From Candidatus Saccharimonadota bacterium (GTDB taxonomy: Bacteria; Patescibacteriota; Saccharimonadia; Saccharimonadales; Saccharimonadaceae), in assembly GCA_000503915.1 (NCBI GenBank), contig CP006915.1:480001-512000 (forward strand): a stretch of DNA of 32,000 bases, given 5' to 3'. The notes under the pieces are model-generated. The model was not told the origin of the DNA. It saw only the letters and a list, made by a program, of their open reading frames with translations, and did not search any database. Position 1 is the stretch's first letter, and the number at the start of each line of letters is the position of its first letter. The translations under genes and the position numbers were made by a program. Below are positions 1 through 20,414 of the stretch, in pieces.

Positions 1-1326
1 ATCGACAAAGTGATGGACAGTTGGTTCGAAGCTGGCAGTATGCCATTTGCACAGTTCCATTATCCGTTTGAAAACAAAGAAAAATTTGAAGAAAACTTCC
101 CAGGTGACTTTATCGTCGAGTACATCGGTCAAGTGCGTGCCTGGTTTTACTATATGCACGCTATGGCGATTGCATTGTTCGATGAAAACTCATTTAAAAA
201 CGTCATTACCACCGGAAACGTGGCCGGCAACGATGGCCGTAAGATGAGTAAAAGCTATGGCAACTATACTGATCCAAATGAACTGATGGACAAATTTAGT
301 GCTGATTCGCTGCGCTTTCTGCTGCTTTCCAGCCCGCTCTTAAACGGTGAAGATTTTGCGCTTCAGGACAAAGAGGTTGGCGATGTCGCGCGCAAGCTCG
401 GTATGATCTGGAACATGTACGATTTCTTCACGATGTACGCCGAAGTTGATGGCTGGGAGTTTGACGGGGAACTCAAAGACCCGCTCGATGAGGCTACTAA
501 TCCGCTCGATATTTGGATCATTTCGCGTCTCCATCAGCTAATTGAAGAGATTGAGAAAAACATGGATGTCTATAATCTCCCCGACGCGATGAATCCAATC
601 TTACCGTTCCTTGACGATGCGTCAAACTGGTACGTGCGCCGCAGCCGTCGCCGATTCTGGAAGTCGGAAGACGACGGAGACAAACAGATGGCCTACCAGA
701 CGCTTCATTATGTGCTGGTACGGCTAGCCTACGTGCTAGCGCCCTTCACGCCATTCCTCGCCGAGGAGCTGTATCATAATTTAACCGGTGATAAAGAATC
801 GATTCACCTCAAGGATTGGCTATCGGCGGGTCATATCAATAAGCTCGTGATGGACGACATGGAGACAGTGCGTGATTATGCTAACCAGGGGTTAAGCTTG
901 CGTGCAAAAGCCGGCCTGAAAGTGCGCCAGCCACTGGCTAGCGTCACGGTACCCAGCCTAGGTGAGTATGTAGAATTTGAACCAATCCTACTCGATGAGC
1001 TGAATGTTAGATCTGTAAAAATCGGTGATGCGGTGACGATCGATGAAACGTTGACACCAGAGCTGCGGCGCGAAGGTTTGATACGCGAAGTCATTCGCCA
1101 TATCCAAGCCGCACGCAAGAAAGCAAATCTTAAAGTGGATGACCATATCAGTCTTTCACTATCGACAGCTGGTGACAATGAGCTGACAAAAGCTATCAAC
1201 GAGCATGAAGATACAATCATGGCGGAAACACTGGCGGATCACATGGTGAAAGGCGACCTCGCCCACAGTGAGTCGGTGAAAGTTGAAGATGAAGAGCTAG
1301 TCATCTCTCTCGAAAAAGCTCACTAA
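1..1326 (+). CDS. ileS: Isoleucyl-tRNA synthetase, C-terminal part (5' end lies upstream of the window)
   Basis: Frame +1 is open from base 1. It carries the KMSKS motif (GRKMSKSYGNY) and the DSWFEAGSMPF and HYPFEN blocks typical of class I IleRS. The C-terminus has no Cys zinc knuckles, which fits the type-2/eukaryote-like form. Confidence 0.95.
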   Translation: MDKVMDSWFEAGSMPFAQFHYPFENKEKFEENFPGDFIVEYIGQVRAWFYYMHAMAIALFDENSFKNVITTGNVAGNDGRKMSKSYGNYTDPNELMDKFSADSLRFLLLSSPLLNGEDFALQDKEVGDVARKLGMIWNMYDFFTMYAEVDGWEFDGELKDPLDEATNPLDIWIISRLHQLIEEIEKNMDVYNLPDAMNPILPFLDDASNWYVRRSRRRFWKSEDDGDKQMAYQTLHYVLVRLAYVLAPFTPFLAEELYHNLTGDKESIHLKDWLSAGHINKLVMDDMETVRDYANQGLSLRAKAGLKVRQPLASVTVPSLGEYVEFEPILLDELNVRSVKIGDAVTIDETLTPELRREGLIREVIRHIQAARKKANLKVDDHISLSLSTAGDNELTKAINEHEDTIMAETLADHMVKGDLAHSESVKVEDEELVISLEKAH

Positions 1327-2120
1327 TTAGTTCGTACGTCGCGGCGTAGGAAACCAATCCAACCGATGATGGTGAGAACGACGATAGCTCCAATAATGAC
1401 AAGCAAGTTCGTTTCATCGAGGCCATTGCTCATAATTTGTGGATTGTTGTAGTAGTGTAGTAGTGAAAACTTATCAAGGATTTCCAGCTTATCGACGGCC
1501 GGAGCCAGTGAGGTGATGAACAAGCTGGCGACAGCATAGCCACAGGCAAGTAGTAGCGTCAAGCCGCGACTGCCCGTAAACATAGCGATGACGTAGACGA
1601 TGACTCCATAGGCGATGTTGATGAGGCTAAAAGCGAGCAGTGATTGCCAGACTAGTGTAAAGTCGGTTGATTCGTCAATGACGAGCAGTGCCAGCCAAAT
1701 CGCTAGGACAACACTTGCGCAGATGACGGTAACGACCGTGATGGCGGCGAGCCATTTCTGAAAGTAGACACGGGTGCGACTGACCGGAAAGCTGAGAAGA
1801 GACTGCATGCGGCCGTCGGCTTCTTCGCTGGCGCTGATACCGAGGAAAATGAGGATCGCCATGATAAGCGAAATGATATAAAGATTCGGGCCGAAGATTT
1901 GTTGGCCGATGTAGCCAGGGACAGTTTTAAAATCAGCCACGTCGCCGACTAGGCTTTTAAGCGAATCAGGCACGGAATTGACAATATCTTCAATACCCGT
2001 CTGGCTAAAAGAAGGGTAGAGCACCATAGTAGAGAACGACATAGCCGCGAGACCAACCAACCAACCGAGTAGTTGCCAGCGTAGGCTGTAAAGACTTTTG
2101 AAATAGATATTCCTAAACAT
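1323..2120 (-). CDS. ABC-2 type transporter permease
   Basis: This 265 aa protein has several hydrophobic helices. Its start overlaps the stop of the upstream ATPase gene by 8 nt (2113-2120), the typical exporter pair arrangement. Confidence 0.75.
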   Translation of the reverse strand: MFRNIYFKSLYSLRWQLLGWLVGLAAMSFSTMVLYPSFSQTGIEDIVNSVPDSLKSLVGDVADFKTVPGYIGQQIFGPNLYIISLIMAILIFLGISASEEADGRMQSLLSFPVSRTRVYFQKWLAAITVVTVICASVVLAIWLALLVIDESTDFTLVWQSLLAFSLINIAYGVIVYVIAMFTGSRGLTLLLACGYAVASLFITSLAPAVDKLEILDKFSLLHYYNNPQIMSNGLDETNLLVIIGAIVVLTIIGWIGFLRRDVRTN

Positions 2121-3039
2121 GGCGACCTTTCTTTGTCGTGGGAGCGCTATAGTATTCCATGAATAGTTCGTCGAGCGCCGGTTCTAGAATCTGTAAGTCA
2201 CTGATCGGCTTGGTGGCGAGGATGTGAAGTAACTCGGTGTAATCACCGCTGAAGGTAAAGGCTCGTCGTTTGCCGTGGATATGAAAGTCGCTGACACCCT
2301 TTAAAGTACGCAGGCGGCTATCGGGAGCCCCTGATGGGTAAAGCGCACTGACACGGTGAGCAACATTCTCGAGAAGTTCTTCTAACGTGCTGACACGAAT
2401 CAACTTACCATCACGGATAAAACCGATGCGGTGGCAGGCGGCTTGGACTTCGGAGAGAACATGCGAGCTCATAAATGTTGTTTTGCCACGTGCTGCGTGG
2501 TCACGGATAATAGCATTGAACTCATTTTGTACCAGTGGATCGAGGCCGGATGTCGGCTCATCGAGTATCAGTACGTCAGGGTCGTGCATTAGTGCACTGA
2601 CGAGGCCGATTTTCTGACGGTTACCACGCGAAAGATGCTTTATCTTTTTGTTGGTCTCACAGCGAAGTTGCTTGACTAGCTTATCGACTGCCTCAGCCGA
2701 CACGCCGCCGCGTAAATGTGCGGCATATTGAAGATATTGCTTACCAGTCAGGCTGGAGTCCGTCTCCATATCACCAGCTAAGTAACCGATGTGACGATGT
2801 ACCTGAACACTATCGTCATGTGCGTCCAGGCCAAGGACTTCAATCGTGCCGCTGTCGGGACGCAGTAAATCAAGGATCGTGTTTATGGTTGTCGATTTGC
2901 CGGCACCGTTTGGTCCCAAGAAGCCGAATATTTCACCTTGGGAAATGGTAAGCGATATATTTTCGATACCTCGAGACTTACCATAACTCTTTGTGACGTG
3001 CGACAGCTCGAGAGCGGGAGTAGAAGGCAGACGTTTCAT
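2113..3039 (-). CDS. ABC transporter ATP-binding protein
   Basis: It has Walker A GPNGAGKST, signature LSRGNRQK and Walker B LILDEPTSGLD. I moved the start to ATG 3039 (MKRLPS...) because the 17-codon extension to 3090 is non-homologous. Confidence 0.9.
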   Translation of the reverse strand: MKRLPSTPALELSHVTKSYGKSRGIENISLTISQGEIFGFLGPNGAGKSTTINTILDLLRPDSGTIEVLGLDAHDDSVQVHRHIGYLAGDMETDSSLTGKQYLQYAAHLRGGVSAEAVDKLVKQLRCETNKKIKHLSRGNRQKIGLVSALMHDPDVLILDEPTSGLDPLVQNEFNAIIRDHAARGKTTFMSSHVLSEVQAACHRIGFIRDGKLIRVSTLEELLENVAHRVSALYPSGAPDSRLRTLKGVSDFHIHGKRRAFTFSGDYTELLHILATKPISDLQILEPALDELFMEYYSAPTTKKGRHV

Positions 3040-3103
3040 TAATTTAAGCCTATACCCTTCTAACGTAAGCGTCAACCATGTAAGCGGCAATAGGGAAAGG
3101 ATA

Positions 3104-3132
3104 TTGACAATTCATTGTGTTTATGTTAGACT
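3104..3132 (+). promoter_or_regulatory. Sigma-70-like promoter: TTGACA, 17 nt spacer, TAGACT with a TG extension
   Basis: TTGACA lies at 3104-3109, followed by a 17 nt spacer and TGtTAGACT ending at 3132. It sits upstream of the ORF starting at 3159. Confidence 0.4.
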
Positions 3133-3158
3133 GATAAAGTAAATTATAAAAAACAAAC

Positions 3159-3365
3159 ATGATATTTTTTAAACGTAAACTAGCTTTTCTACCGATTGAT
3201 CCACTTGGTGATGGACTCGGCGATGAAATCGCTCGAGAGCGGCGCGAGTCGGAAGCGATTACACTTGAGGAGCAGCTGGATGACCAGCTCGCTAGCAAAT
3301 GGGATGAAATTTTAAACGATGCCCATAAAGATCCCGAGTGGTTTGATTTTGCGAGTGACGAATAA
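3159..3365 (+). CDS. Hypothetical small acidic protein (68 aa)
   Basis: The ORF lies downstream of a canonical promoter. Its leader is A-rich with no Shine-Dalgarno sequence, and I recognise no domain. Confidence 0.4.
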   Translation: MIFFKRKLAFLPIDPLGDGLGDEIARERRESEAITLEEQLDDQLASKWDEILNDAHKDPEWFDFASDE

Positions 3366-3372
3366 AAGCGTC

Positions 3373-3401
3373 TTGACGTCCTTGAAGCGTGAGCGTATAA
3401 C
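3373..3401 (+). promoter_or_regulatory. Sigma-70-like promoter: TTGACG, 17 nt spacer, TATAAC
   Basis: TTGACG lies at 3373-3378 and TATAAC at 3396-3401. It would give an AT-rich leader of about 80 nt before ATG 3487. Confidence 0.4.
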
Positions 3402-3486
3402 AAGGCTATTATCTAGGGTCAAATAAACAATAATTGAATACGACATTAGGTAAAGCCCTTTAGGAAACAGAGAGGAGGTGAGGGTA

Positions 3487-3765
3487 ATGTCTGCTGTCAC
3501 TGCCGCGCAGTTACAAGACGCTGCGCACGGATGTCTCGCTGATCTTTACCTGCTGTCCCGCGAAGGGAAAGTAGTGTACGGACACGACGTCGTGGAGTTG
3601 GTTGACGACTTCTGTATCCGTGCCAAGTGCACCCATGCTGTCGGCTCACTGCCGGCGCCGCTTGGGTCGCTCTACCGCGAAGCCTGCTGCCAGCCGAGGA
3701 GAATCTTCTCGGGCAGTAAGCTCAACCAGCTACTGTGCGACCTTGCACAAGGCATAGCTGCCTGA
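3487..3765 (+). CDS. Hypothetical Cys-rich small protein (92 aa), GC-rich orphan
   Basis: GGAGG at 3474-3478 lies 8 nt before ATG 3487. This is the only long open frame in the region. It encodes 6 Cys residues and is followed by a strong hairpin. I recognise no family. Confidence 0.5.
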   Translation: MSAVTAAQLQDAAHGCLADLYLLSREGKVVYGHDVVELVDDFCIRAKCTHAVGSLPAPLGSLYREACCQPRRIFSGSKLNQLLCDLAQGIAA

Positions 3766-3780
3766 TCTGTTTACCCAATA

Positions 3781-3807
3781 GGGGTGCCGCGTATGAAGTG
3801 GCACCCC
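3781..3807. terminator. Strong GC hairpin without a U-tract (GGGGTGCC, 11 nt loop, GGCACCCC)
   Basis: The 8 bp perfect stem extends to 10 bp with the flanking TA pairs. It lies 16 nt after the stop at 3765. Neither strand has a T-run, so intrinsic terminator function is uncertain. Confidence 0.35.
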
Positions 3808-3843
3808 TAAAACATGTCTAAATAGTGCTATACTTAGTACAGT

Positions 3844-4236
3844 ATGAGAGAGATTTCCGACGACGAATTTGACCAGTTGATTTCGCGGGCGATGGATGAA
3901 TTACCACAGGAGTATATTCGCGGTCTACAAAATGTTGCCATTGTGATGGCGGATGAGCCAAATGATCTGCAAAGGGAGCGTATAAAGTTGCGTCATGATA
4001 ATTTACTCCTCGGTCTTTATGAGGGCGTGCCGCTGACGCATCGAAATGGCAACGAGTCGGGCATTCTACCAGATAAGATCACGCTATTTAAATATCCGAT
4101 TCTCGCGGTCGTGAACAATGAGCAAAGTTTATTTGAGCAAATCAAGCGCACATTGTGGCACGAGATCGCTCATTATTACGGGCTGGATCATGGACGGATC
4201 CATCATCTGGAGACCAAGCGAAACGTTGTAGAATAA
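3844..4236 (+). CDS. Zincin-like metallopeptidase family protein (DUF1025/Zincin_1-like)
   Basis: It has an HExxH-type motif (WHEIAHYYGLDH) near the C-terminus and is about 130 aa. The overall pattern matches small cytosolic 'possible zinc metallopeptidase' proteins. Confidence 0.7.
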   Translation: MREISDDEFDQLISRAMDELPQEYIRGLQNVAIVMADEPNDLQRERIKLRHDNLLLGLYEGVPLTHRNGNESGILPDKITLFKYPILAVVNNEQSLFEQIKRTLWHEIAHYYGLDHGRIHHLETKRNVVE

Positions 4237-4301
4237 ATCTGCTTACGGTACAATAGAAGTAGCTACATATCACGTCTTGGGGTGACGAGGAGAGGTAGGG
4301 G

Positions 4302-4952
4302 ATGAACGTGCGAGGACAATCATCACTCAAGGGAGCTTATCTACTGCTTATATTGGCCGGGTTATGGCTCGTGCCAACACTTGTCGTGGCGTTCTCTCCG
4401 CTCCGTGCGCAGGCGCTCGTGCCGGAGCTTTTTGGTTCGGGCAAACTAAAGCGGGCCAACCTTTCTATCGATATAAAGAAGACAACTTCCTACACGTCTT
4501 CACTGTTTACATCGCGTGATAATTCTTCCTCATCGGTGAATAAAACAAGCCCAGACAAGGGTGATAAAAGTAAGGTAAACAATTCATCCGATACATCCAC
4601 GACGTCAGCGCCCTCGACAAAGACGACTACTCCGGCAGGGAGCACTACTTCAGCGCCAACACCGAAACAAGCGGCAACGTATCCGACGCTTTCGCTTGTG
4701 GCCAAGCCACTCAAGGCCGTCACACTACCAGCGGCAACATTGGTGAGCGCTGGAGTAGCTCCGGTACCCTCACCGGTCGTCCTGACCGATGGCAGACCAC
4801 GTCTGGTCGTGCTTGAACCGTCAGATGAGGGGTGGCGGGTCTTTGGAGTAGCATGGTACTGGTGGATCGCGGCGATAATTTTAGGTGGCGGTGGGGCAAT
4901 TGCAATGCGTGAATTTAGGAGGGTAACGAAAACAGAGGAGAGCTGGGCGTAA
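4302..4952 (+). CDS. Secreted Ser/Thr/Pro-rich protein with a C-terminal AWYWW, TM helix and Arg-cluster anchor
   Basis: The N-terminal signal peptide is ...LRAQA|LV. A long low-complexity S/T-rich linker follows. The C-terminus reads GVAWYWWIAAIILGGGGAIAMREFRR. An SD-like GAGGAGAGG lies upstream. Confidence 0.7.
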   Translation: MNVRGQSSLKGAYLLLILAGLWLVPTLVVAFSPLRAQALVPELFGSGKLKRANLSIDIKKTTSYTSSLFTSRDNSSSSVNKTSPDKGDKSKVNNSSDTSTTSAPSTKTTTPAGSTTSAPTPKQAATYPTLSLVAKPLKAVTLPAATLVSAGVAPVPSPVVLTDGRPRLVVLEPSDEGWRVFGVAWYWWIAAIILGGGGAIAMREFRRVTKTEESWA

Positions 4953-4992
4953 CGAATAACTCGAAGAACAGAAAATCGTTTGACGCTTATGT

Positions 4993-5020
4993 TTGCTTAA
5001 AATAACACGAGGGGTATACT
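4993..5020 (+). promoter_or_regulatory. Promoter: TTGCTT, 16 nt spacer, TATACT
   Basis: TTGCTT lies at 4993-4998 and TATACT at 5015-5020, upstream of the 947 aa gene. Confidence 0.4.
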
Positions 5021-5079
5021 GAAATCAGTAAATATATAATCCTGTAAGTGGAGTTGCGGGAAAAGCGAGGATAGGTCTC

Positions 5080-7923
5080 ATGGTATTACATTTTAAAAGT
5101 AAAAGCCCCCTTCGAGTTAACAAACTTGCCGGGGCATTCATTGCGATTGCAGCATTTTTGGTGCAACCGCTGGTAACACTAAACATTCCGAGTGCATTTG
5201 CGGTTTCGGGTCCTCAGTACTACGTGCGTGCTGACGGTAGTGACACAAACTGTGATGGCTCTGCGAATGTCGCAGATGCTGACACGACTACGACGGCATG
5301 TGCCAAAGCAACCGTCCAGGCGGGTATTAATGCCGCTGGTAGCGATGCAACCGTTCACATTGGTTCTGGCAGCTTTAGCGCCAGCCAATATTTAGTTCTT
5401 GCTGGTCATGATAACCTGACGATAGACGGAGACGGTAAGACGCACACGACACTGCAACTTACCGCTGCCTATGATGGTTTCAAGGTGCAAGCAAACAACG
5501 TTACGCTATCAGACTTCACGATCGATGGCACCTCGGTCGCAAATTACGGCCTCCGCGCCCAAGGTGTCGACAACCTCACGGTTGATAATGTCAAAACTAC
5601 TAAGATGAAAAAGACAGGTTTTGATATCAATGGTGTCACCAACTCCTCATTCACGGATTTGACCGCTACAGACAATGGCGGAAACGGTTTTTCGGTAACT
5701 GATACGTTAAATCTTACTTTCACTGACACACGTTCTTCTGGCAACGCATGGGGCGGCATGGGCATTTATACTCACGGTGGAGCATTTGTTGGTCGCTGTG
5801 GCGTGGATGGTATTAGCTTCAGTGGAGTTCTAAACTTGCAAGAAGTCGGAGCCCTCTATACTGGAATCGACAGCTCTACCTGTACCTCTATCACTAATGT
5901 AAATATTCCAAGCACGGCCCTTCCGTATAAGGTCACATTAAACAACACCGACCCACAGGATATTTATACCGCTAGCCAGGCCAATGCCGAATCGCTTGTT
6001 AGTGCTTACGGTGCGCTTTCTCCAGTAGTGAGGAGCACCGAGACGGGGCACTACGTTGTGGTCGGTGGCCAAACTATCCAATCGGTCATTAACGCTGCTC
6101 CGGCCGGTAGTGTCATCGACGTTCCGGCAGGTACCTACCCAGAAAGCGTATCGGTGAATAAAGCCGTGACACTGGTCGGTGCGGGAAGCGACGATACGGG
6201 AACGGTTATCTCGGGTACGAGCGGTACGGGTCTTAGTCTTTCGGCCGGTACTGACGCGACACATCGTGTTGTTGTCCAAAACCTTAAAGTCACAGGCTTT
6301 ACGACCGGCGTGACGGCAAGCAGCTACAACACGCTGGAAAATGTCGTTAGCACCGGAAACGCTAGCTACGGCATTAGCCTCAATAGCTTGAACGATCTAA
6401 ACATTGCAAGCTCTAAATTTAATAACAACACAGTCGGTTTGAAACTTAGCTCGGCAGCAAGCGCCAACAATGTGCAAATCACCAACAGTGAATTTAACGG
6501 TAACAGCGCCCATGGCTGGTACTCTGACAAAAGTGCAGCAAGTGGTTCGTACTTAACAAACCTATCGGTGGCTAATACGAGCTTTAGTGATAACGGCCAA
6601 AAAGGTTTTTACACTGAAAAGCTTTCGTACGCAACATTTGACCATGTCACTATAAACAATAGTGGCTTCACCGGTAGTTATGGTTCTGGTCTTAATATCA
6701 ATCTGAAGTATGGTAATTACCAAAATATTACCATTCAAAACTCAGTAGTCACGAATTCTGGCCGAGGCGATGCACTCTACGGTACAGGTATTAATATCGA
6801 AGCACGCGATGACGGCTCCTACGCCAGTAATCCTGCAACGCTCAACAATGTGACGATTTCAGGCGGTCAGGTAACGGACAATCAAGTTGGTCTACGCTTC
6901 GGTGAATCTGGCAAGAACAATGCTGGTCCGACAGGCGTGACTATCATGGGAGTTAATCTGAGTGGCAACGTTGCAGAAGCGATCAATAATCAAACGACGG
7001 CGACCATCACCGCAGTCGGTAACTGGTGGGGCCATGAGACTGGTCCAACAGCAGGTCAGTACACCGGCGATGTCATCGTTACTCCATGGTGTGACGTCGC
7101 GGACTGCAGCAGTTTGTTTTCAGATGAACCCGTACAGCTAGAGGTTTCTGACGGGCAAGGTACGACGGACGTTCCTCTAGCTCTCAGTAGCTCTACGCCG
7201 AGCGGTCCGGTATCGGTAGAAATTCCAGAAAATACGACGATAACAAGTGACTCAGGTTGGGACGGAACTATCACACCGCCCACAATAGATACAACTTACG
7301 ATGTGCCTGGAGCAAGCAACACGACTGGATTAGTCATTACAGTGGGCTCGGATGAATACAGCCTGTCATTTGACAAGCCAGTAAAGCTTATCCTACCTGG
7401 CCAGAAAGGCAAGCTGGTGGGCTGGCAGGCTCCTGGCAGCAGTACATTTACCCCAATTACGACCGATTGTAGTACATACCTGCCCGACCTAAACGCTGGT
7501 ATGCCAGTTGGCGGTGATTGTAAAACCACAGATGATACTGATCTTGTCATCTGGACAAAACACTTTACAACCTTCGCAACTTATACGGTGGCAACGACAA
7601 ATGGCGATGGATCGGGCGGCGGCTCAGGCGGCGGCACTACAACTACCAGCCCGGCGCCGACTCCAACGACGATTTTTGGCGGAGTCTTTAACGTCACACC
7701 GAACCAGGGTACGAAATCTGGTAACGGCATCAAAGACGATAACGGTGAAATTCTTGGTACTAATACGTCACCAAAGAAAACTACTGCGAATGCAAGTGCT
7801 AAAGATAATGGCGGCATTATCCTTGGCTTGGCCTGGTACTGGTGGGTTGCCATCCTGGCAGTACTAGGACTCGTCTGGTGGGGCTTCAGCGCATGGCGCA
7901 CCCGTCGTAGCGACACTTTCTAG
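5080..7923 (+). CDS. Large surface protein with two right-handed parallel beta-helix (PbH1/NosD-like) regions and a C-terminal AWYWW anchor
   Basis: The signal peptide is ...PSAFA|VS. YYVRADGSD is a beta-helix N-cap-like start. Repeated NxT(I/L/V)xxxx(I/V) rungs are present. A second module has INAAPAGSVIDVPAGTYPESV and NWWG motifs. A Gly/Thr/Pro linker precedes the C-terminus GLAWYWWVAILAVLGLVWWGFSAWRTRR. Confidence 0.85.
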   Translation: MVLHFKSKSPLRVNKLAGAFIAIAAFLVQPLVTLNIPSAFAVSGPQYYVRADGSDTNCDGSANVADADTTTTACAKATVQAGINAAGSDATVHIGSGSFSASQYLVLAGHDNLTIDGDGKTHTTLQLTAAYDGFKVQANNVTLSDFTIDGTSVANYGLRAQGVDNLTVDNVKTTKMKKTGFDINGVTNSSFTDLTATDNGGNGFSVTDTLNLTFTDTRSSGNAWGGMGIYTHGGAFVGRCGVDGISFSGVLNLQEVGALYTGIDSSTCTSITNVNIPSTALPYKVTLNNTDPQDIYTASQANAESLVSAYGALSPVVRSTETGHYVVVGGQTIQSVINAAPAGSVIDVPAGTYPESVSVNKAVTLVGAGSDDTGTVISGTSGTGLSLSAGTDATHRVVVQNLKVTGFTTGVTASSYNTLENVVSTGNASYGISLNSLNDLNIASSKFNNNTVGLKLSSAASANNVQITNSEFNGNSAHGWYSDKSAASGSYLTNLSVANTSFSDNGQKGFYTEKLSYATFDHVTINNSGFTGSYGSGLNINLKYGNYQNITIQNSVVTNSGRGDALYGTGINIEARDDGSYASNPATLNNVTISGGQVTDNQVGLRFGESGKNNAGPTGVTIMGVNLSGNVAEAINNQTTATITAVGNWWGHETGPTAGQYTGDVIVTPWCDVADCSSLFSDEPVQLEVSDGQGTTDVPLALSSSTPSGPVSVEIPENTTITSDSGWDGTITPPTIDTTYDVPGASNTTGLVITVGSDEYSLSFDKPVKLILPGQKGKLVGWQAPGSSTFTPITTDCSTYLPDLNAGMPVGGDCKTTDDTDLVIWTKHFTTFATYTVATTNGDGSGGGSGGGTTTTSPAPTPTTIFGGVFNVTPNQGTKSGNGIKDDNGEILGTNTSPKKTTANASAKDNGGIILGLAWYWWVAILAVLGLVWWGFSAWRTRRSDTF

Positions 7924-7948
7924 ATTGCTAAACTACGACTTCAAGAGA

Positions 7949-7983
7949 AGCGGCTCCCTAAAGTAGGAGCCGCTCTTGTTTTT
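7949..7983 (+). terminator. Rho-independent terminator
   Basis: AGCGGCTCC, an 8 nt loop and GGAGCCGCT are followed by CTTGTTTTT. Confidence 0.75.
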
Positions 7984-8030
7984 CCTAAACCGGTGCTATA
8001 CTTATAGAATAAGCGATACAACATAAAAAT

Positions 8031-8918
8031 ATGCCAAAACGAAACGTCACGAAAAAAACGCTGCATACCCGCGTCCGCCGCGGTATTAAAAATACTGTCG
8101 TGCCGCACAAGAAAAACGGCTACCGTCCGCATCTGATCAGAGGAACGGGAATTGCTGTGGTAGTAACAGTGGTCGTCGCAGCGCAGCTACTTAGCGGTCT
8201 CGTACCGCGAGGCACGATACTGGGCAATGAGACCGATGTGACGATGGAGCGATTGCTCGCTGCTACTAATGAGCAGCGCGTTCGCCAGGGTGAAGCGCCA
8301 TTGACGCTCGACCAGAAACTGAATTACGCCGCCACCGAGAAAGCTCACGATATGCTAGCGGGTCAGTACTGGGCACATGTATCACCCAGTGGTGCCACGC
8401 CGTGGACTTGGTTTAAAAAAGCCGGCTACCACTACAGTTATGCCGGCGAAAACCTTGCTAAGGGCTTTCTGACTTCTTCGGGCGTTGTGACGGCTTGGAT
8501 GAACTCTACCGAGCACCGCGATAACGTGCTAAATGAGCATTATACGAATGTTGGTTTTGCTGTGGTAAACGGCTCACTGGACGGTGAATCGACTAATATT
8601 ATCGTCGCGCTTTATGGCCGACCAGTAGCAAAAACAGCCGTTGCCACTGGTGAGACAGTACTCGCTGCAACTGATGAACCAATGAGCCTGGCGGCACATC
8701 TCGGCGTAGCCTTGCAGTCGATGAGCCCGGCAGTGCTGACATCGCTACTGCTCACTATATTCACGATCTTTATTGCGCTGACAGCGCACATGTACCGCAA
8801 AAAACTGCCCAAGCAAGTCCGTCAGACATGGCGTCGTCATCATGGCCTATATAAAGCAGTTGGCATGAGCTCACTGGCGGTCGTTTTACTTGCGCTGTAC
8901 GGTGGCGGACAAATTTAG
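8031..8918 (+). CDS. Membrane-anchored CAP/SCP (YkwD-like) domain protein
   Basis: A basic N-terminus and TM helix are followed by a CAP-like core (QRVRQGEAPLTLDQKLNYAA...AGENLA...WMNSTEHRDNVLN..YTNVGFAV). The C-terminus has two further hydrophobic helices. Confidence 0.8.
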   Translation: MPKRNVTKKTLHTRVRRGIKNTVVPHKKNGYRPHLIRGTGIAVVVTVVVAAQLLSGLVPRGTILGNETDVTMERLLAATNEQRVRQGEAPLTLDQKLNYAATEKAHDMLAGQYWAHVSPSGATPWTWFKKAGYHYSYAGENLAKGFLTSSGVVTAWMNSTEHRDNVLNEHYTNVGFAVVNGSLDGESTNIIVALYGRPVAKTAVATGETVLAATDEPMSLAAHLGVALQSMSPAVLTSLLLTIFTIFIALTAHMYRKKLPKQVRQTWRRHHGLYKAVGMSSLAVVLLALYGGGQI

Positions 8919-8927
8919 GGTATAATT

Positions 8928-9197
8928 ATGGCTATGGATAGAGATAACGCACCACATTTTAACGTCTACGAGCCAAAACAACCCGAGGAAGTGAGAGAAT
9001 TTGTCGTACCGTCCGAGAAGGATTTACCATCTGGTTACGAGTTTCTCTACCAAGAAGATCGAATACTGGAGCCTACGCTTGACGGACGAACAAAACTGGA
9101 TGTGCTGCTAGCAGAGCATGGTTATGCCATACGGCTGGTTCCTGTGGATGGCGGCTACCTCGTATATAAATTTATGGGTCTCAAGCCAGTAGAATAA
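8928..9197 (+). CDS. Hypothetical protein (89 aa)
   Basis: The ORF fills the gap between the CAP gene and galU, 5 nt before the galU start. I recognise no domain. TATAAT at 8921-8926 favours the second ATG (8934) as a leaderless start. Confidence 0.5.
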   Translation: MAMDRDNAPHFNVYEPKQPEEVREFVVPSEKDLPSGYEFLYQEDRILEPTLDGRTKLDVLLAEHGYAIRLVPVDGGYLVYKFMGLKPVE

Positions 9198-9201
9198 GTA
9201 T

Positions 9202-10017
9202 ATGAAAGTTACTAAAGCCATTATCCCTGTCGCGGGCTGGGGCACGCGCCGACTGCCAATTACGAAGACGATTGAAAAATGCATGCTGCCGATTGGCAAC
9301 CGGCCATTAGTCGACTATGTGGTACAAGATTGTCTAAAGGCGGGCATCACGGAGCTGATCTTTGTCGTCGGGGAAGATAGCACGCAGCTCGAAGATTATT
9401 ACCGCAGTAACATCAAACTAAATGACTATCTGCGTCAAAATGGGAAAGAAGATAAGCTACCGCTTGTCGCGCCACTCGAAGGTATAAAACTCCACTTTGT
9501 AACACAGCCCAGTCACGGCAAATACGGTACGGCCGTACCAGTAGCCTTGGCGAGAGGTTATATCAAAGAAGGTGAATCAGCGGTCGTGCTGATGGGTGAC
9601 GACTTTATCTGGAACGAAAACGGTGCGAGTGAAGTTAAACGCTTGATAGAGGCAACTCCCGAGGGAGACTGTGGCCTCCTCGCGGCACAAGTTGAGCTCA
9701 AAAAGGGCGGCACGCTTGGTTTGATCGTGCAGGATGAGCAAGGATTTTACAAAGAAATTGTCGACCAGCCACTTGTTGAAGATAATCCACCGAGCGATCT
9801 GGCGAACATCAGTAAGTACCTCCTCACCAAGGAGGTACTCGATGAGGCAGTGAAGCTGCCTCCGGCTCACAATGGCGAGTATCAGCTGCCAGACGCAGTG
9901 AATAACTTTGTTGCACGTGGTGGACGGGTAAAAGTGGTTCCAGCGCAAGGTCAGTATCTCGACGGAGGAACACTCGAAGGCTGGCTGCATACCAACAATG
10001 TCATAGCTGGAAAATAG
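9202..10017 (+). CDS. galU: UTP-glucose-1-phosphate uridylyltransferase-like nucleotidyltransferase
   Basis: The N-terminal motif is AIIPVAGWGTRRLPITKTIEKCMLPI (GxGTRxLPxTK). The protein is about 270 aa. Confidence 0.8.
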   Translation: MKVTKAIIPVAGWGTRRLPITKTIEKCMLPIGNRPLVDYVVQDCLKAGITELIFVVGEDSTQLEDYYRSNIKLNDYLRQNGKEDKLPLVAPLEGIKLHFVTQPSHGKYGTAVPVALARGYIKEGESAVVLMGDDFIWNENGASEVKRLIEATPEGDCGLLAAQVELKKGGTLGLIVQDEQGFYKEIVDQPLVEDNPPSDLANISKYLLTKEVLDEAVKLPPAHNGEYQLPDAVNNFVARGGRVKVVPAQGQYLDGGTLEGWLHTNNVIAGK

Positions 10018-10037
10018 ACTTGAGCAGAGAACCACGG

Positions 10038-10066
10038 TTGAAAAGTGGCTTTATATCTGTTACAAT
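10038..10066 (+). promoter_or_regulatory. Promoter: TTGAAA, 17 nt spacer, TGtTACAAT
   Basis: The -35 and extended -10 are near consensus. AAGGA precedes the rplU ATG. Confidence 0.55.
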
Positions 10067-10102
10067 CAATCAGATTGAACATTAAAGCAATAAGGATTAT
10101 TC

Positions 10103-10411
10103 ATGAAAGCAGTCGTGAAAGTAGGCGGCAAGCAATATATTGTCGCTGAAAAAGAGACCCTCCTGGTGGACCGCCTCCCGGATGGAACCAAAGAGCTCAC
10201 CCTCGACGCGCTTCTGACGATTGATGGAGACAACACCACCGTCGGAACGCCTACTGTCAAAGGTGCTGTAGTCAAAGCTAAGGTGGTAGATGATGAAGTA
10301 AAGGGCGACAAGCTCCGGATCATCCGCTACAAAGCCAAAAAGCGCGTGCACAAGGAAACTGGCCACCGCCAGAAGTACACCCGTATCCAGATCGCCTCGA
10401 TTGGTAAATAA
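10103..10411 (+). CDS. rplU: 50S ribosomal protein L21
   Basis: MKAVVKVGGKQYIVAEKETL... is a typical L21 sequence, and the protein is 102 aa. Confidence 0.95.
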   Translation: MKAVVKVGGKQYIVAEKETLLVDRLPDGTKELTLDALLTIDGDNTTVGTPTVKGAVVKAKVVDDEVKGDKLRIIRYKAKKRVHKETGHRQKYTRIQIASIGK

Positions 10412-10417
10412 TCAAAT

Positions 10418-10451
10418 AAGCTCCGCTACAAAAAAGCGGAGCTTTTTGTTT
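10418..10451 (+). terminator. Rho-independent terminator
   Basis: AAGCTCCGC, a 9 nt loop and GCGGAGCTT are followed by TTTGTTT. Confidence 0.8.
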
Positions 10452-10498
10452 ACGGCTCATGCTACAATAGGAGTAAAAGAAGAGGGAACAACAAACAG

Positions 10499-11263
10499 GT
10501 GACTACCGTTATCGCAGTGACGAACCAAAAGGGAGGGGTCGGCAAGACTACCAGTGCGGTTAATATTGCCTATTTCTTGGCAAAAAGCGGCAAGAAAACA
10601 CTACTGATCGACTTTGACCCTCAGGGAAACGCCACCAGTGGCCTCGGTTTCGATAAACAGTCGCTCGACACCGGTACGATGACTGATGTCCTGCTCGAAG
10701 CCAAGCAGCTGCAAGAAATTGTACTAAAAACCAACCACAAGAATTTGTTTATCGCACCCGCCACTCCTTACCTCGCTAACACGGAGGCAGAACTCGGGGG
10801 TGCTGGTCGCCGCTTCAGTCGACTGAAAAATGCTGTCGACAATACACCTGGTTATGATTTTTTGATCATCGACTGTCCGCCCAGCCTCAGTTTACTCACC
10901 GTCAACGCACTCATTGCTACCCGCTATGTACTACTACCGGTGCAGGCTGAATTTTATGCGCTTGAGGGACTTGGGCAATTGCTGGAAACCATGAAGCTGG
11001 TACGCAAAAATATGAACCCCACACTTGATCTGATTGGTGTGCTGCCCACTATGGTTGATGGCCGTACCACCTTGAGTGGCCAGGTGCACGAAGAGATAAA
11101 GAAGCATTTTCCAGGCAAGGTATTCAAGACGGTGATCCCGCGCAACATTCGCTTGGCGGAAGCACCGAGTCACGGGGTGCCGATTGGCGCATACGATCGC
11201 TTTTCTAAAGGGTCTCGTGCCTACAAGGCAGTGACAAAGGAGGTGCTGGAACGTGTCGGTTAA
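10499..11263 (+). CDS. parA: Chromosome partitioning ATPase ParA/Soj
   Basis: It has a GTG start and the deviant Walker A NQKGGVGKTT. Full-length similarity is Soj-like. A TGCTACAAT extended -10 lies at 10460-10468. Confidence 0.9.
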   Translation: MTTVIAVTNQKGGVGKTTSAVNIAYFLAKSGKKTLLIDFDPQGNATSGLGFDKQSLDTGTMTDVLLEAKQLQEIVLKTNHKNLFIAPATPYLANTEAELGGAGRRFSRLKNAVDNTPGYDFLIIDCPPSLSLLTVNALIATRYVLLPVQAEFYALEGLGQLLETMKLVRKNMNPTLDLIGVLPTMVDGRTTLSGQVHEEIKKHFPGKVFKTVIPRNIRLAEAPSHGVPIGAYDRFSKGSRAYKAVTKEVLERVG

Positions 11264-12125
11264 AAAAGGTCTAGGACGCAGTTTTGAATCGCTCATCCCG
11301 AGTGAGTTACTCGACGAATCATTTGATCCGACGGCAAACGATGACCAGAAGGTGAGCGATCTACGTACAATCAAGCTAAGCGAAATCATGCCTGATCCTG
11401 ACCAGCCACGTCGACAGTTTGATGAAACAGCACTGACGGAGCTAGCAGCTTCCATTAAGGAGCATGGTGTCCTGCAACCGATCGTCGTGGTCACAAAGGA
11501 TGGGAAGTACCAGATTGTTGCTGGCGAACGGCGTTACCGCGCGAGTCTCCAGGCGGGCAAGACGACGATCCCGGCACTGGTACGCACCTTGAGCGATCAG
11601 CATAAATTGGAGCTGTCGCTGATCGAGAATATTCAGCGGCGAGATCTCAACCCGCTCGAAACGGCCACCGCCTATGCCAAACTGCGCAACCAATTTAATC
11701 TCACCCTCGAAGAAATCGGCGCCCGCGTCGGTGGCAAATCAATGGCCACGATTAGCAATACCTTACGCCTATTGCGGCTTCCTGAAGCAGTCAAGCAAGC
11801 AGTAGCCGAAGGAAAAGTCAGCGAGGGGCAGGCTCGTCCGCTCATCGGTACTGATGAGGCGGTAGTACAGGAGCTCTTGCCGCAGATCATAGGCGAAGGC
11901 TGGAGTGCACGTAAGATCGAAACGGTCGTTGCGGCATACAAGTCAAAAAACCGTGCGAGTACGAAGACATCGTCACCTCAACAGCCGTTGCGAAACGATG
12001 TACTGTCGAAACGATTCTCTACTAAGGTTACCGTACAATCATCACAGCGCGGAGCGGGTAAATTCATCATTGCATTTTCAAATCAGGAAGAGCGCGAACG
12101 GATCGAGAGGCTACTCGGCGAGTAA
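11253..12125 (+). CDS. parB: Chromosome partitioning protein ParB/Spo0J
   Basis: The ParB box is PDPDQPRRQFDE...IVAGERRYRA. An HTH region follows. The GTG start overlaps parA by 11 nt. Confidence 0.9.
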   Translation: MSVKKGLGRSFESLIPSELLDESFDPTANDDQKVSDLRTIKLSEIMPDPDQPRRQFDETALTELAASIKEHGVLQPIVVVTKDGKYQIVAGERRYRASLQAGKTTIPALVRTLSDQHKLELSLIENIQRRDLNPLETATAYAKLRNQFNLTLEEIGARVGGKSMATISNTLRLLRLPEAVKQAVAEGKVSEGQARPLIGTDEAVVQELLPQIIGEGWSARKIETVVAAYKSKNRASTKTSSPQQPLRNDVLSKRFSTKVTVQSSQRGAGKFIIAFSNQEERERIERLLGE

Positions 12126-12170
12126 GGCTATAAAGTGAACCCTACGGCAAAGTCTTGGCCGAAAGTGTGC

Positions 12171-12770
12171 TTAAAATGTTCGAATCTTATCAAACGGGAA
12201 GATCCGTAGCGCAACCGGTCCGACGACGTCGTAGTAGGGGATGTAGCCAAGACCGTTGCGCGAATCTTTTGAATAGCCTTCTTGGCGGTGGTCACCACTG
12301 ACAAACAGGGTACCTCTCGGTACGATAGTATCAACCTGACCGTCTGTCGGCGATGACGGCTCACCGTGGTTTTGATCGTCGGGGTTGAAACCTTTTGGAC
12401 TGGACTGGCTGTAGACGGTGAAATGACCATCGCTTAGGACGACTCGTTCACCAGCAAAGGCGATGACGCGTTTGACTATATATTCTTCGCCCATTCCAGG
12501 AGAGTACTGCGGGTTCTTAAAGACAATAACATGACCACGCTCGGGCACGTATGTTTTATTTTGCAGTTGTGCCATTGTGACAGGTAGTCGATTGACAATC
12601 AAACGGTCACCAGTGTAGAGCGTGCTCTCCATACTAGGACCTTCAACGTTGAAACTACGAAAGATAAAGGCGTTGATGAATAACGTGCCGATCAGCACAC
12701 AGACAATAAAAATAAGTATTCCGAGGACATCTTTGAGGCCTTGGTGGCGCTCGAGAAAACTGGCATTCAT
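12171..12770 (-). CDS. lepB: Signal peptidase I
   Basis: An N-terminal TM helix is followed by the catalytic Ser box GPSMESTL, the Lys box YIVKRVIA and GDHRQEGYSKDSR. Confidence 0.9.
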   Translation of the reverse strand: MNASFLERHQGLKDVLGILIFIVCVLIGTLFINAFIFRSFNVEGPSMESTLYTGDRLIVNRLPVTMAQLQNKTYVPERGHVIVFKNPQYSPGMGEEYIVKRVIAFAGERVVLSDGHFTVYSQSSPKGFNPDDQNHGEPSSPTDGQVDTIVPRGTLFVSGDHRQEGYSKDSRNGLGYIPYYDVVGPVALRIFPFDKIRTF

Positions 12771-12872
12771 TCCTTTTACTATACACTAGATTGCCATGAC
12801 CGACCACGATAAAAACCGGCTATGTTTTATCGTGCAATCGAAAAAAAGTTTGCTATAGTAAGAGGAGTATTT

Positions 12873-14519
12873 ATGCGAAAACAAACGTCCTCACTTGATG
12901 GTTTTGTCCCCCGGCGACCCAACAGCATGAGCAAAATTGCTCAGGCTGGTGAAGCGCGTGAGAATCTTTCTGCCAGGCCGCAATTGACCGAAAACGACAT
13001 TGAGCAGCGCGGCATGAGACGACGCGATATTGACGAATCTCTAGCGGGCATCGACAACGAAGAACCACAGCCGAAAAAGCGGCGTCGACTATTCCACCGT
13101 CGCCAGCGCGGTAGAGTGCTGACACGCCGTCAGAAAATCATCCGACGGACTATTAAGTTTCTGATCATCATTATTATACTGGCGGGTGCATTTGTAGCAA
13201 TCAAAACGTTTATCGCTACCAATAACATCTTGCAGGGTAATATTTTTGATATCCTACAGAACAAACCACTCAAAATGGACGCAAACGGCCGTACTAACAT
13301 CTTGCTCTTCGGTACCTCCGAGGACGACCCCGGTCACGAGGCAGGTAGCTTGACCGACTCGATCATGATGGTGAGCATCGATCAGAAGCAAAAGAATGCC
13401 TATATGGTCAGTATCCCGCGCGATCTCTATGTCGACTATGGGACAGCGTGTAGTGCTGGTTACCAGGGAAAGATCAATGTTATCTATGGCTGTTACTCAA
13501 ATGACGGCAAAAAAGAAGCGGCTGGCGCCAGCGCTCTCGGAAAAAAAGTCGGTGATGTGCTTGGTCTCGACGTCCACTACTACGCTCACGTTAACTACAC
13601 AGTGGTGCGCGACGTGGTGAAGGCGCTTGATGGTATTACTGTCACGATTGAGAGTCGCGATCCGCGTGGCGTGATGGACAGTAATTTCGACTGGAAGTGT
13701 AAAAAAGGCAATGCCTACGCATCGTACGCGACTATTCTTAAAAATTGTCCGCCGAATGGACACTTTATTGATTATCCGAACGGCAAGGTCAAATTAGACG
13801 CCGAGCATGCACTGTACCTGGCACAAGCCCGCGGCGATGCGGCACCGACTTACGGTTTGGAACAGTCGAATTTCGATCGAGAAAAAAACCAGCAGAAGAT
13901 TGTCAAGGCAATCACCGAGAAAGCAGTCAGCGCTGGGACGATTACCAACCTTGGGAAAGTGACGGGGCTAATCGATGCGCTGGGTAACAATCTGCGTACT
14001 GACTTCGAGGTCAGTGAAGTACGCACGCTAATGCAACTTGCCGAGAGTATTCCGTCTGATCGCATTAAATCGATCTCCCTAATTGAAGAAGGCAACGAGT
14101 TAGTCACGACTGCGACAATTGGCGCTAGCGTGGTTGTGCCGGCGGCAGGAACGTATGACTACAGCCAGATTCAGGCATATGTTGCCAAGAAATTGAGTAA
14201 GGATCCTGTGGTGCGTGAAGCTGCCAGCATTTTTGTCCTCAATGGCACTACAACACCAGGCTTGGCGCAAAGCGAAGCGGCTAAACTTACAGCGGCCAAA
14301 TACGTGATCACCGCAACCGACAATGCTGCTACCGATGACTACCAAAAGACTGTCGTATATCGGCTAAACAAAAAAAGCGATGTCGATGGTACGGCCAAGA
14401 CCCTTGCAACGCGTTATAGTGTGAAGCTAAAGACGGGAGCGCTCCCGTTCGCTATCAGCGGCAACCCTGACTTCGTGATCATTGTCGGTGCCGACGTCGC
14501 TGCGACCAAGACAAACTAG
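12873..14519 (+). CDS. LytR-CpsA-Psr (LCP) family cell-envelope glycopolymer ligase
   Basis: A basic N-terminus and TM helix are followed by the LCP core (NILLFGTSEDD...SLTDSIMMVSID...MVSIPRDLYV). The C-terminus has a LytR_C-like domain. I placed the start at ATG 12873, after AGAGGAG. Confidence 0.85.
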   Translation: MRKQTSSLDGFVPRRPNSMSKIAQAGEARENLSARPQLTENDIEQRGMRRRDIDESLAGIDNEEPQPKKRRRLFHRRQRGRVLTRRQKIIRRTIKFLIIIIILAGAFVAIKTFIATNNILQGNIFDILQNKPLKMDANGRTNILLFGTSEDDPGHEAGSLTDSIMMVSIDQKQKNAYMVSIPRDLYVDYGTACSAGYQGKINVIYGCYSNDGKKEAAGASALGKKVGDVLGLDVHYYAHVNYTVVRDVVKALDGITVTIESRDPRGVMDSNFDWKCKKGNAYASYATILKNCPPNGHFIDYPNGKVKLDAEHALYLAQARGDAAPTYGLEQSNFDREKNQQKIVKAITEKAVSAGTITNLGKVTGLIDALGNNLRTDFEVSEVRTLMQLAESIPSDRIKSISLIEEGNELVTTATIGASVVVPAAGTYDYSQIQAYVAKKLSKDPVVREAASIFVLNGTTTPGLAQSEAAKLTAAKYVITATDNAATDDYQKTVVYRLNKKSDVDGTAKTLATRYSVKLKTGALPFAISGNPDFVIIVGADVAATKTN

Positions 14520-14546
14520 CCCGTAGGTGCTACAATAGGGAACTAT

Positions 14547-15317: not shown

Positions 15318-15359
15318 ATTTTTAAGCTATTTTTCAGGGAAGGGGGCTATAAGAAGGGT

Positions 15360-20344: not shown

Positions 20345-20414
20345 ATCCGAACCATTGTAGCTGACTAGAGGGGAAATGTCAAAGGATGACGACTATGCTA
20401 CAATCATAAGCATT

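Follow-up and report, generated by a model that had tools for sequence, protein, structure and literature searches.

Why should two neighbouring surface proteins that have nothing else in common end in the same short tail, and is that tail a signal read by a sorting enzyme or a membrane anchor? The question is raised by a stretch of 32,000 nucleotides (contig CP006915.1, positions 480,001 to 512,000; hereafter the window) from Candidatus Saccharibacteria bacterium RAAC3_TM7_1. A sequence-only reading of it had noticed that two adjacent genes encode proteins with a shared block G-x-AWYWW, a transmembrane (TM) helix and a cluster of arginines at the C-terminus, and had proposed a sorting or anchor motif outside the named classes. 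We found that the tail is a widespread module of the Saccharibacteria, always C-terminal and located mostly at two syntenic chromosomal sites, and that the protein head which it carries is replaced between close relatives.

The first gene of the tandem pair (4302–4952, plus strand, as are all features of the pair) encodes a protein of 216 aa and the second (5080–7923) a protein of 947 aa, 100% identical to RAAC3_TM7C00001G0542. Both open reading frames (ORFs) proposed in the sequence-only reading are real, and their C-termini are as it gave them, save for a few residues omitted after the Arg cluster. The small protein consists of a predicted signal peptide, a Ser/Thr/Pro-rich low-complexity stalk, and the tail; no Pfam family was found in it by a Pfam scan. 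The C-terminus reads ...EGWRVFGVAWYWWIAAIILGGGGAIAMREFRRVTKTEESWA, in which the juxtamembrane signature G-W-R-V-F-G-V-A-W-Y-W-W (4830–4865; positions −8 to +3 relative to the core Trp, delimited by the column statistics given below) runs into the TM helix AWYWWIAAIILGGGGAIAM (4851–4907), followed by the basic cluster REFRR (4908–4922) and nine residues with the stop codon to 4952. The large protein has a signal peptide, a right-handed beta-helix head, a conserved C-terminal stalk domain, a linker, and the tail. Its head belongs to the Pfam family Beta_helix (PF13229, E = 4.2e-14, 52.9 bits against a cutoff of 25.9), while NosD-like repeats stayed under their cutoff. The stalk domain and a Gly/Thr/Pro-rich linker (7381–7746), conserved in the related proteins P0005 and P0056, precede the tail module; residues 700–850 are the portion found in the largest number of other family members. 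The module begins with an upstream element, the VLG box E-I-L-G-T-N-T (7747–7767), 29 residues before the core Trp; this box is absent from the small window protein. The signature G-G-I-I-L-G-L-A-W-Y-W-W (7810–7845) occupies the same columns as in the small protein and leads to the TM helix AWYWWVAILAVLGLVWWGFSAW (7831–7896), the basic cluster RTRR (7897–7908), and SDTF with the stop codon to 7923; this C-terminus reads ...NGGIILGLAWYWWVAILAVLGLVWWGFSAWRTRRSDTF.

Both proteins start with signal-peptide-like n-, h-, and c-regions with A-x-A ends (RAQA/L and SAFA/V). The predicted signal peptides, which were read from the sequence rather than taken from predictor output, comprise residues 1–38 of the small protein (4302–4415, PLRAQA/LVPEL) and residues 1–41 of the large one (5080–5202, IPSAFA/VSG). 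Orthologues of the small protein (P0037, P0053, P0066, P0073, and P0157) are each encoded directly 5' of a large tail protein and keep the junction A-x-A/L-[VM]-P-E-L; in this family, the signal peptide is followed by a short conserved stretch, which has two Cys in certain lineages, and then by a region rich in Ser, Thr, and Pro and by the tail. In a consensus scan, a terminator-like hairpin (7949–7974, plus strand), with a T-rich tail and a 9 bp stem that includes 7 G-C pairs, was detected 26 nt past the stop codon of the large gene; the 127 nt that separate the tail genes contained no comparable site. Because the hairpin follows the large gene and none separates the pair, the two genes probably form one bicistronic, co-transcribed unit.

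Comparison of the two proteins by BLASTP aligned the tails alone, over a 48-residue stretch (E = 3e-5), and detected nothing significant outside of them, in agreement with the proposal that the proteins are otherwise unrelated. The AWYWW blocks lie at 4851–4865 and 7831–7845, as had been noted; translated in all six frames, the window has no further WYWW. The identity of TGGTACTGGTGG in both genes, which had been put forward as a shared trait, is real, but it carries almost no information since Trp has one codon. The flanking codons, GGA GTA GCA in the small gene and GGC TTG GCC in the large one, differ at synonymous sites; the two tails are therefore conserved as protein, and recent DNA duplication or gene conversion between them is ruled out.

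The tail is not limited to these two neighbours, the circumstance under which the idea of a motif class was to be abandoned. An 11-tail profile searched with HMMER against 1.84 billion representative proteins matched 690 protein clusters at E ≤ 1e-3 and 12 at E ≤ 1e-10. The best 150 of the 690 matches, from proteins of 62–1544 aa, all align within about 12 residues of the C-terminus, and homologues of the 947-aa protein retain the tail even where the remainder diverges. A hidden Markov model (HMM) built from 153 tails and spanning −14 to +24 about the core Trp scored both window ORFs at about 1e-12; applied over 107 loci (1.34 Mb), the tail HMM detected 132 tail ORFs, every one with the tail at the C-terminus. 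The expected placement at the extreme C-terminus of non-homologous ectodomains was thus borne out, and internal occurrences were not found among these proteins. The best 150 matches and the 132 locus ORFs all end 25–40 aa after the core Trp, as in the general design of C-terminal signals with a signature, a TM helix, and a basic cluster, which the sequence-only reading had correctly recognized. An N-terminal hydrophobic h-region, scored by a strict home-made rule, was present in 98 of the 135 full-length members, as expected of exported proteins.

Column statistics were calculated for 153 tails aligned on the core Trp (W0). Gly at −3 and Trp at 0 are invariant (100% each), and the aromatic residues that follow are nearly so: Y 96% at +1, W 90% at +2, and W 97% at +3. 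Ahead of them, G (52%) or C (18%) stands at −8, W (59%) or G (22%) at −7, and K (63%; K/R) at −6, positions −5 and −4 being hydrophobic; position −1 is A (62%) or C (18%). Some 16 hydrophobic residues occupy +4 to +19, with I at +6 (72%), A at +8 (75%), and W or Y at +15 (89%) standing out, and an Arg cluster at +20 to +24 precedes a short acidic end. From W0 to the protein end there are 25–40 aa, with a median of 29. In the small window protein, the hydrophobic stretch is 19 residues long with WYWW and 14 without it; as the shorter stretch falls short of TM length, WYWW is better regarded as the outer end of the TM helix than as a separate motif.

Two further traits of the module go beyond hydrophobicity. 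The Cys residues at −8 and −1 behave in an all-or-none manner: of 254 unique tails, both are present in 27 and neither in 227, with no tail having just one of them. This covariation holds across sub-lineages with different neighbouring residues and would fit an extracytoplasmic structural contact. The Cys-type sub-family has the form C-x-[KE]-h-h-G-h-C-W-Y-W-W, often followed by I-P-I-V, the two Cys jointly replacing G(−8) and A(−1); it includes P0002, P0030, P0046, P0052, P0054, P0058, P0076, P0096, P0130, P0141, and P0163. On a helix, the i/i+7 spacing precludes an intrachain disulfide, so the segment would be a loop, or the Cys would line an oligomer interface. The VLG element, [VI]-L-[GA]-[ATD]-[TQE]-[TD], lies at a median of 34 aa upstream of the core Trp; 200 of 256 unique tails contain it, whereas the ectodomain background would predict 8.5%. 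AlphaFold2 modelled a 70-aa tail of the large protein as a disordered linker and one continuous helix, G34–S66, from GGIILGL through the Arg cluster, with a predicted local distance difference test score (pLDDT) of 87–91 in the TM part and a mean of 65. On the question whether the signature forms a hairpin, which the Cys pair suggested, this single helix of modest confidence was uninformative.

The distribution of the tail was determined by two scans. The genome scan, with one genome per GTDB species and the patterns [IL]FGLAWYW and one TM pattern, gave 17 confirmed loci, all from Saccharibacteria; the metagenome scan, with the pattern [FL]G[LIV]AWYWW, gave 79 further loci. Among 20 protein clusters looked up for taxonomy, one bore an organism name, Saccharimonadaceae. 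Classification by synteny placed 97 of 103 tail loci at two sites. Locus A (87 loci) has the order IleRS ... Zincin_1, tail gene(s), a CAP-domain membrane protein, (NTP transferase), L21, ParA, ParB, signal peptidase I (SPase I), LytR/Cps/Psr (LCP), orf256, and HtrA; both Zincin_1 and CAP are present in 54 of these loci. Locus B (10 loci) has the order PolA, sigma factor, DnaG, x, YjbR on the minus strand, tail gene, and MsrB, its flanks being YjbR and MsrB or Amidase_2. Five loci lie elsewhere in varied gene order, and the flanks of one were too short to classify. Both sites were confirmed from called genes, and three more loci were added beyond the 103. Tail genes usually occur singly or as two in tandem at a locus; adjacent tandem genes on the same strand were found in 29 loci, including the window, usually with a protein of about 200–240 aa (sometimes 400–480 aa) ahead of a large one, as here. 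Two unrelated carriers thus stand together in the window and 28 other loci. Each of 14 contigs of 0.3–1.04 Mb, among them the complete genome CP011211, contained one match region. A genome would accordingly carry no more than two or three tail loci, a number that we do not fix exactly. The expectation that the tail marks many unrelated secreted proteins per genome, as a sorting class should, was not borne out among the loci detected with these patterns, which match 17–37% of the known tails.

One locus at first suggested a spread beyond the Saccharibacteria. Contig L018 (DATKKU010000025.1), assigned to 'Candidatus Binatia', is syntenic with the Saccharibacteria locus B, and its DnaG and sigma-factor proteins are 70–87% identical to those of locus L022; the likely explanation is that DNA of a Saccharibacteria member was mis-binned into a metagenome-assembled genome of Binatia. 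Another irregular case is L025 (GCA_964535835.1, CAZHUZ010000010.1), where locus A lacks the tail genes and CAP, and a Cys-type tail gene lies about 6.5 kb off beside an alpha/beta hydrolase. Within 1–1664 of this contig, the Cys-type tail was called as a 71-aa gene (P0142); at the contig end, a 212-aa ORF (1026–1661) overlaps a 424-aa ORF (2–1273) in another frame, probably because a large tail gene is frameshifted or was assembled wrongly.

The proteins to which the tail is attached are diverse. With the tails removed (all from 45 residues before the core Trp, about 75 residues), the ectodomains fell into 37 groups at ≥50% mutual coverage. The Pfam domains found in them were Big_13, Big_3_3, LTD (Lamin-tail), Y_Y_Y, beta-helix, PKD, LysM, Flg_new, and others, and judging by these the carriers appear to be diverse adhesin-like proteins.

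The variability of the heads was traced at nucleotide level by blastn between the window and L110, the locus of a relative with identical gene order which carries P0005. DNA identity is 95% over 2215–5201 of the window, a segment that includes the small gene, the spacer between the genes, and the part of the large gene that codes for its signal peptide, and 92% from 7381 on, covering the stalk domain, the linker, the tail, and CAP. Between these, window positions 5202–7380 had no DNA similarity to the corresponding part of L110 (2988–5031) in blastn. The boundaries of this beta-helix head cassette (5202–7380) are sharp, falling just past the signal peptide and at the start of the C-terminal stalk domain. 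At the protein level, residues 1–37 of the large protein are 92% identical to P0005 and the head at most 26%; the last 240 aa are 76–78% identical to P0005 and P0056. P0003, the product of a locus-B gene in another genome, instead aligns with 98% of the window head at 41% identity. In most locus-A loci, the ectodomain of the large protein has no detectable similarity to that of the window, while the flanking genes are 45–78% identical. The head is, therefore, a replaceable cassette inside a conserved frame. A second indel between these near-identical backbones was also observed: L110 contains at 7718–9256, between NTP transferase and L21, an extra gene for a 512-aa protein without a Pfam match, which is absent from the window.

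Named C-terminal signals were examined by scanning the window proteins, their isolated tails, and the tails of ten consensus-like relatives against NCBIfam release 20 and Pfam-A at E ≤ 10. No named -CTERM model (PEP-CTERM, PGF-CTERM, GlyGly-CTERM, MYXO-CTERM, and others) reached its cutoff on the 12 tails. The best scores, 17.5 against a cutoff of 26 for PID-CTERM, 12 against 24 for PFE-CTERM, and 12.2 against 29 for PTPA-CTERM, came from alignment of only the helix or the Arg part. The LPXTG profiles behaved likewise, aligning only the helix and basic part below cutoff (TIGR01167 LPXTG_anchor, 8.2 bits against 15.9; Microco_LAVTG, 8.6 against 27; LAXTG_small_WW, 14.8 against 65). An LPXTG-type pentapeptide, sought with the regular expression [LIVN][PA]xT[GASN], had no match in the small protein; the last one in the large protein was VATTN, which starts at residue 837, so that beyond residue 841, and hence near the tail, there is none. 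Neither the consensus tails nor the last 60 residues of the two window proteins contain an LPXTG-like motif. Sub-threshold matches to a Mycoplasma ICE pilin-like family (19.7 bits, cutoff 40), DUF4381, and TgpA_N covered the helix only and were rejected. The tail profile matched no PDB sequence at E ≤ 10, and the tail module was not described in the full-text literature found on WYWW, on sorting or C-terminal TM segments in Saccharibacteria, on sortases or adhesins in Patescibacteria, on hypervariable synteny, and on Southlakia; the hypervariable proteins treated in PMC13622651 belong to the host, not to the epibiont. The tail thus fails the profile and motif tests of every named class checked, and the suggestion that it lies outside these classes holds, there being neither a Pfam nor an NCBIfam model for it. 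On its sequence traits, it is best filed as an unnamed, Saccharibacteria-specific module of the anchor or sorting type.

The neighbouring genes were particularly analyzed for a processing enzyme. On the 5' border of locus A in the window, a small HExxH protein without a signal peptide is encoded (Zincin_1, PF06262, E = 1.1e-24; 3844–4236, plus strand), and most of the 87 loci of type A have Zincin_1 beside the tail genes. As a tail-processing enzyme it was rejected: it has neither a signal peptide nor a TM segment, is absent at locus B, and is kept in L025 without an adjoining tail gene. The 3' border is formed by a CAP/SCP (YkwD-like) membrane protein (8031–8918, plus strand) with an N-terminal TM segment, an extracytoplasmic CAP domain, and two C-terminal hydrophobic segments (Pfam CAP, E = 1.3e-15; TIGR02909, E = 3.9e-28, below cutoff). 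The CAP gene lies directly downstream of the tail genes in locus-A loci and is missing together with them from locus A of L025; the two may be functionally linked. No sortase-, exosortase-, rhomboid-, or CPBP-type gene consistently adjoined the tail genes in the loci checked for adjacency. The sole intramembrane proteases in the window are an RseP-type M50 site-2 protease (26419–27579, plus strand) and a CPBP/Rce1-like protease (27557–28312, plus strand), the start of whose gene overlaps the former; they follow the genes for polyprenyl and undecaprenyl diphosphate synthases. These are ubiquitous families about 20 kb from the tail genes and give no specific support for sorting. A signal peptidase I gene is also present within the window. 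Gene order is strongly conserved between window positions 1–16547 and loci L004–L021 and L029–L110, with the tail genes as the single hypervariable slot; the conserved block includes SPase I on the minus strand, LytR/Cps/Psr, and a 256-aa ORF without a Pfam match. Farther along the window, a 193-aa protein (20376–20957, plus strand) with the N-terminal methylation motif PF07963 is type IV pilin-like.

Taking the evidence together, we lean modestly toward the view that the tail is a Saccharibacteria-specific, retained type I stalk-and-anchor, whose signature would make a specific contact at the outer membrane interface and which would frame variable proteins facing a host or phage. Both proteins would be exported by Sec through their N-terminal signal peptides. 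The C-terminal helix, WYWW with about 16 hydrophobic residues, would act as a stop-transfer type I anchor, and by the positive-inside rule the Arg cluster and the short acidic end would lie in the cytoplasm. The VLG box and the polar spacer of about 30 residues may hold the folded ectodomain off the membrane, plausibly through the wall. The G-x-x-W-Y-W-W block, preceded by G/C-W-K-h-h, would form an aromatic collar at the outer interface of the membrane; because it is conserved far beyond what hydrophobicity requires, a specific contact is proposed, which may be self-association, association of the small with the large partner, or docking to a common membrane partner. In this view, one or two surface genes at fixed positions would keep the module as an unchanging frame and exchange their exposed heads as cassettes, and the carriers are probably host- or phage-facing adhesin-like proteins of epibionts. 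Retention is favoured over cleavage because of the low copy number at fixed positions, the lack of a linked enzyme, the location of the signature inside the helix, and conservation both deep in the helix and after the Arg cluster; these arguments are indirect. The anchor part of the earlier proposal is thereby supported.

Several points weigh against this interpretation. Retention of the tail on the mature protein is a proposal made from sequence, and the tripartite layout, the tight distance to the C-terminus, the invariant Gly before the helix, and the non-homologous ectodomains exactly match cleaved sorting signals. The argument from low copy number is of limited sensitivity, as, of the 153 known tails, the DNA patterns of the genome scan match just 17% and those of the metagenome scan 37%, and the searches covered DNA contigs. 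The conservation figures were drawn from the best 150 of 690 matches and are hence biased to the query profile, the Cys covariation is partly phylogenetic, and the AlphaFold2 model, computed for a short peptide from 14 aligned sequences, carries little weight. The partner of the proposed contact is hypothetical.

A true sorting signal, which might be called WYWW-CTERM, would account for the same architecture: a dedicated membrane enzyme would recognize G-x-x-WYWW, remove the helix and the Arg tail, and transfer the protein to the wall, a lipid, or a surface layer, in parallel to sortase/LPXTG, exosortase/PEP-CTERM, archaeosortase/PGF-CTERM, and rhombosortase/GlyGly-CTERM. The constant position at the extreme C-terminus, the constrained end distance, and the signal peptides and unrelated ectodomains of the carriers all agree with this, as do the invariant turn-former Gly(−3) beside the helix, the presence of at least two carriers per genome in many genomes and of at least three kinds of locus, the lack of a name for the tail in NCBIfam and Pfam, and the RseP and CPBP/Rce1-like proteases encoded within the window. 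It is nonetheless unlikely, if a serious contender, given that 97 of 103 loci occupy two fixed positions, near-complete contigs have a single match region, and no enzyme is consistently adjacent, the CPBP gene being 20 kb off and of a ubiquitous family. The signature, moreover, lies within the TM helix and not ahead of it, and residues deep in the helix and past the Arg cluster are conserved in sequence; such conservation is unusual in the discarded segments of LPXTG and PEP-CTERM signals. A dedicated class marking many proteins receives no support from the distribution found and is a minority possibility. A related, more speculative version, to which we give somewhat less credence still, is that the G-x-x-WYWW tail and the VLG box are the recognition signal of an undescribed Saccharibacteria-specific sorting or assembly pathway, which would position or covalently attach hypervariable host-facing adhesins, with the small Ser/Thr-rich partner as a co-substrate or adaptor.

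The mosaic structure of the large gene could also mean that the conserved ends, the 5' one coding for the signal peptide and the 3' one for stalk and tail, serve mainly as homology arms for swapping head cassettes between strains and between the two loci, the tail being merely a generic TM anchor. The abrupt changes in identity (95% to 5201, none over 5202–7380, 92% from 7381) and the resemblance of the window locus-A head to P0003 at locus B (41% over 98%), rather than to the head of its positional orthologue P0005 (at most 26%), are what this would predict. Across distant genomes, however, the tail is conserved as protein and not as DNA, and the window tails differ synonymously; the invariant Trp and Gly and the covarying Cys pair point to the peptide as the target of selection, and the small partner carries the tail but has no head to swap. 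This explanation, which we consider improbable, covers the mosaic and is compatible with a retained anchor but leaves the signature unexplained. That two Trp-rich TM helices are alike by chance, or that a local duplication took place in this genome alone, might have been suspected from the adjacency of the genes and from a pairwise similarity confined to 48 residues; this explanation is refuted, and retains next to no probability, in view of the 690 clusters at E ≤ 1e-3, about 100 independent loci, the tandem pair kept in 29 of them, and the synonymous differences.

If the tail is a retained anchor, it shares with the plain type I anchors of monoderm bacteria and archaea a signal peptide, a single stop-transfer helix, cytoplasmic basic residues, a Thr/Ser/Pro-rich stalk, and retention itself, which for the tail is our inference; in plain anchors, however, normally only hydrophobicity is conserved, whereas the tail has invariant Gly and Trp, covarying Cys, the VLG box, and conserved intramembrane residues. 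With the LPXTG/sortase system of Gram-positive bacteria it has in common a C-terminal signature, hydrophobic helix, and basic cluster, a low-complexity wall-spanning linker ahead of the signal, and Sec-exported, adhesin-like multidomain proteins in a monoderm-type envelope; it differs in the lack of the LPXTG pentapeptide, in the signature inside the helix, and in the absence of a sortase linked to the loci. PEP-CTERM/exosortase, PGF-CTERM/archaeosortase A, GlyGly-CTERM/rhombosortase, and MYXO-CTERM resemble the tail in tripartite design at the extreme C-terminus, restriction to lineages, and unrelated ectodomains, and the PGF-CTERM and GlyGly-CTERM signatures also abut or start the helix. These named classes, unlike the tail with its one or two loci and no enzyme found adjoining, usually comprise several to dozens of proteins per genome and a recognisable enzyme. 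Viral class I fusion proteins have aromatic membrane-proximal regions (the membrane-proximal external region of HIV gp41; K-W-P-W-Y-[IV]-W-L before the TM segment of coronavirus spike). The W-Y-x-W cluster at the junction of ectodomain and TM helix, expected in the outer membrane interface, is alike by analogy only: the PDB search at E ≤ 10 gave no sequence relationship to the tail, and there is no evidence of a fusion or membrane-perturbing role. Hypervariable surface-protein islands with conserved frames are reportedly known as the cell-wall genomic islands of Haloquadratum and the hypervariable regions of SAR11. In both these and the window, surface-protein coding sequence is replaced between near-identical strains at a fixed site between housekeeping genes, but the unit in the window is an intragenic head cassette between signal peptide and stalk/anchor, not a multigene island.

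Saccharibacteria are obligate epibionts whose attachment to the host has been tied mainly to type IV pili, and little is known of the other surface proteins with which they meet it. The tail genes are annotated as 'hypothetical protein' because Pfam and NCBIfam have no model for them. The module is not surprising in kind; it is useful as a tag of hypervariable surface genes and for filling this gap in annotation, since an HMM of about 38 positions, or G-x-x-W-Y-W-W about 29 residues from the C-terminus, picks one or two positionally conserved genes per genome. Proteins that recognise a host or serve as phage receptors would be expected to have their heads replaced in this manner, between strains whose remaining sequence is 95% identical, and the conserved frame of signal peptide and stalk/anchor could serve as a display scaffold in genetically tractable Saccharibacteria. 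Were the tail a processed signal after all, a further class would be added to those known, and a novel enzyme would be predicted for a phylum whose genomes are very small; were it the mark of a sorting or assembly pathway, a single short conserved peptide would open a way to study how the proteins that determine host range are displayed and exchanged by these obligate epibionts.

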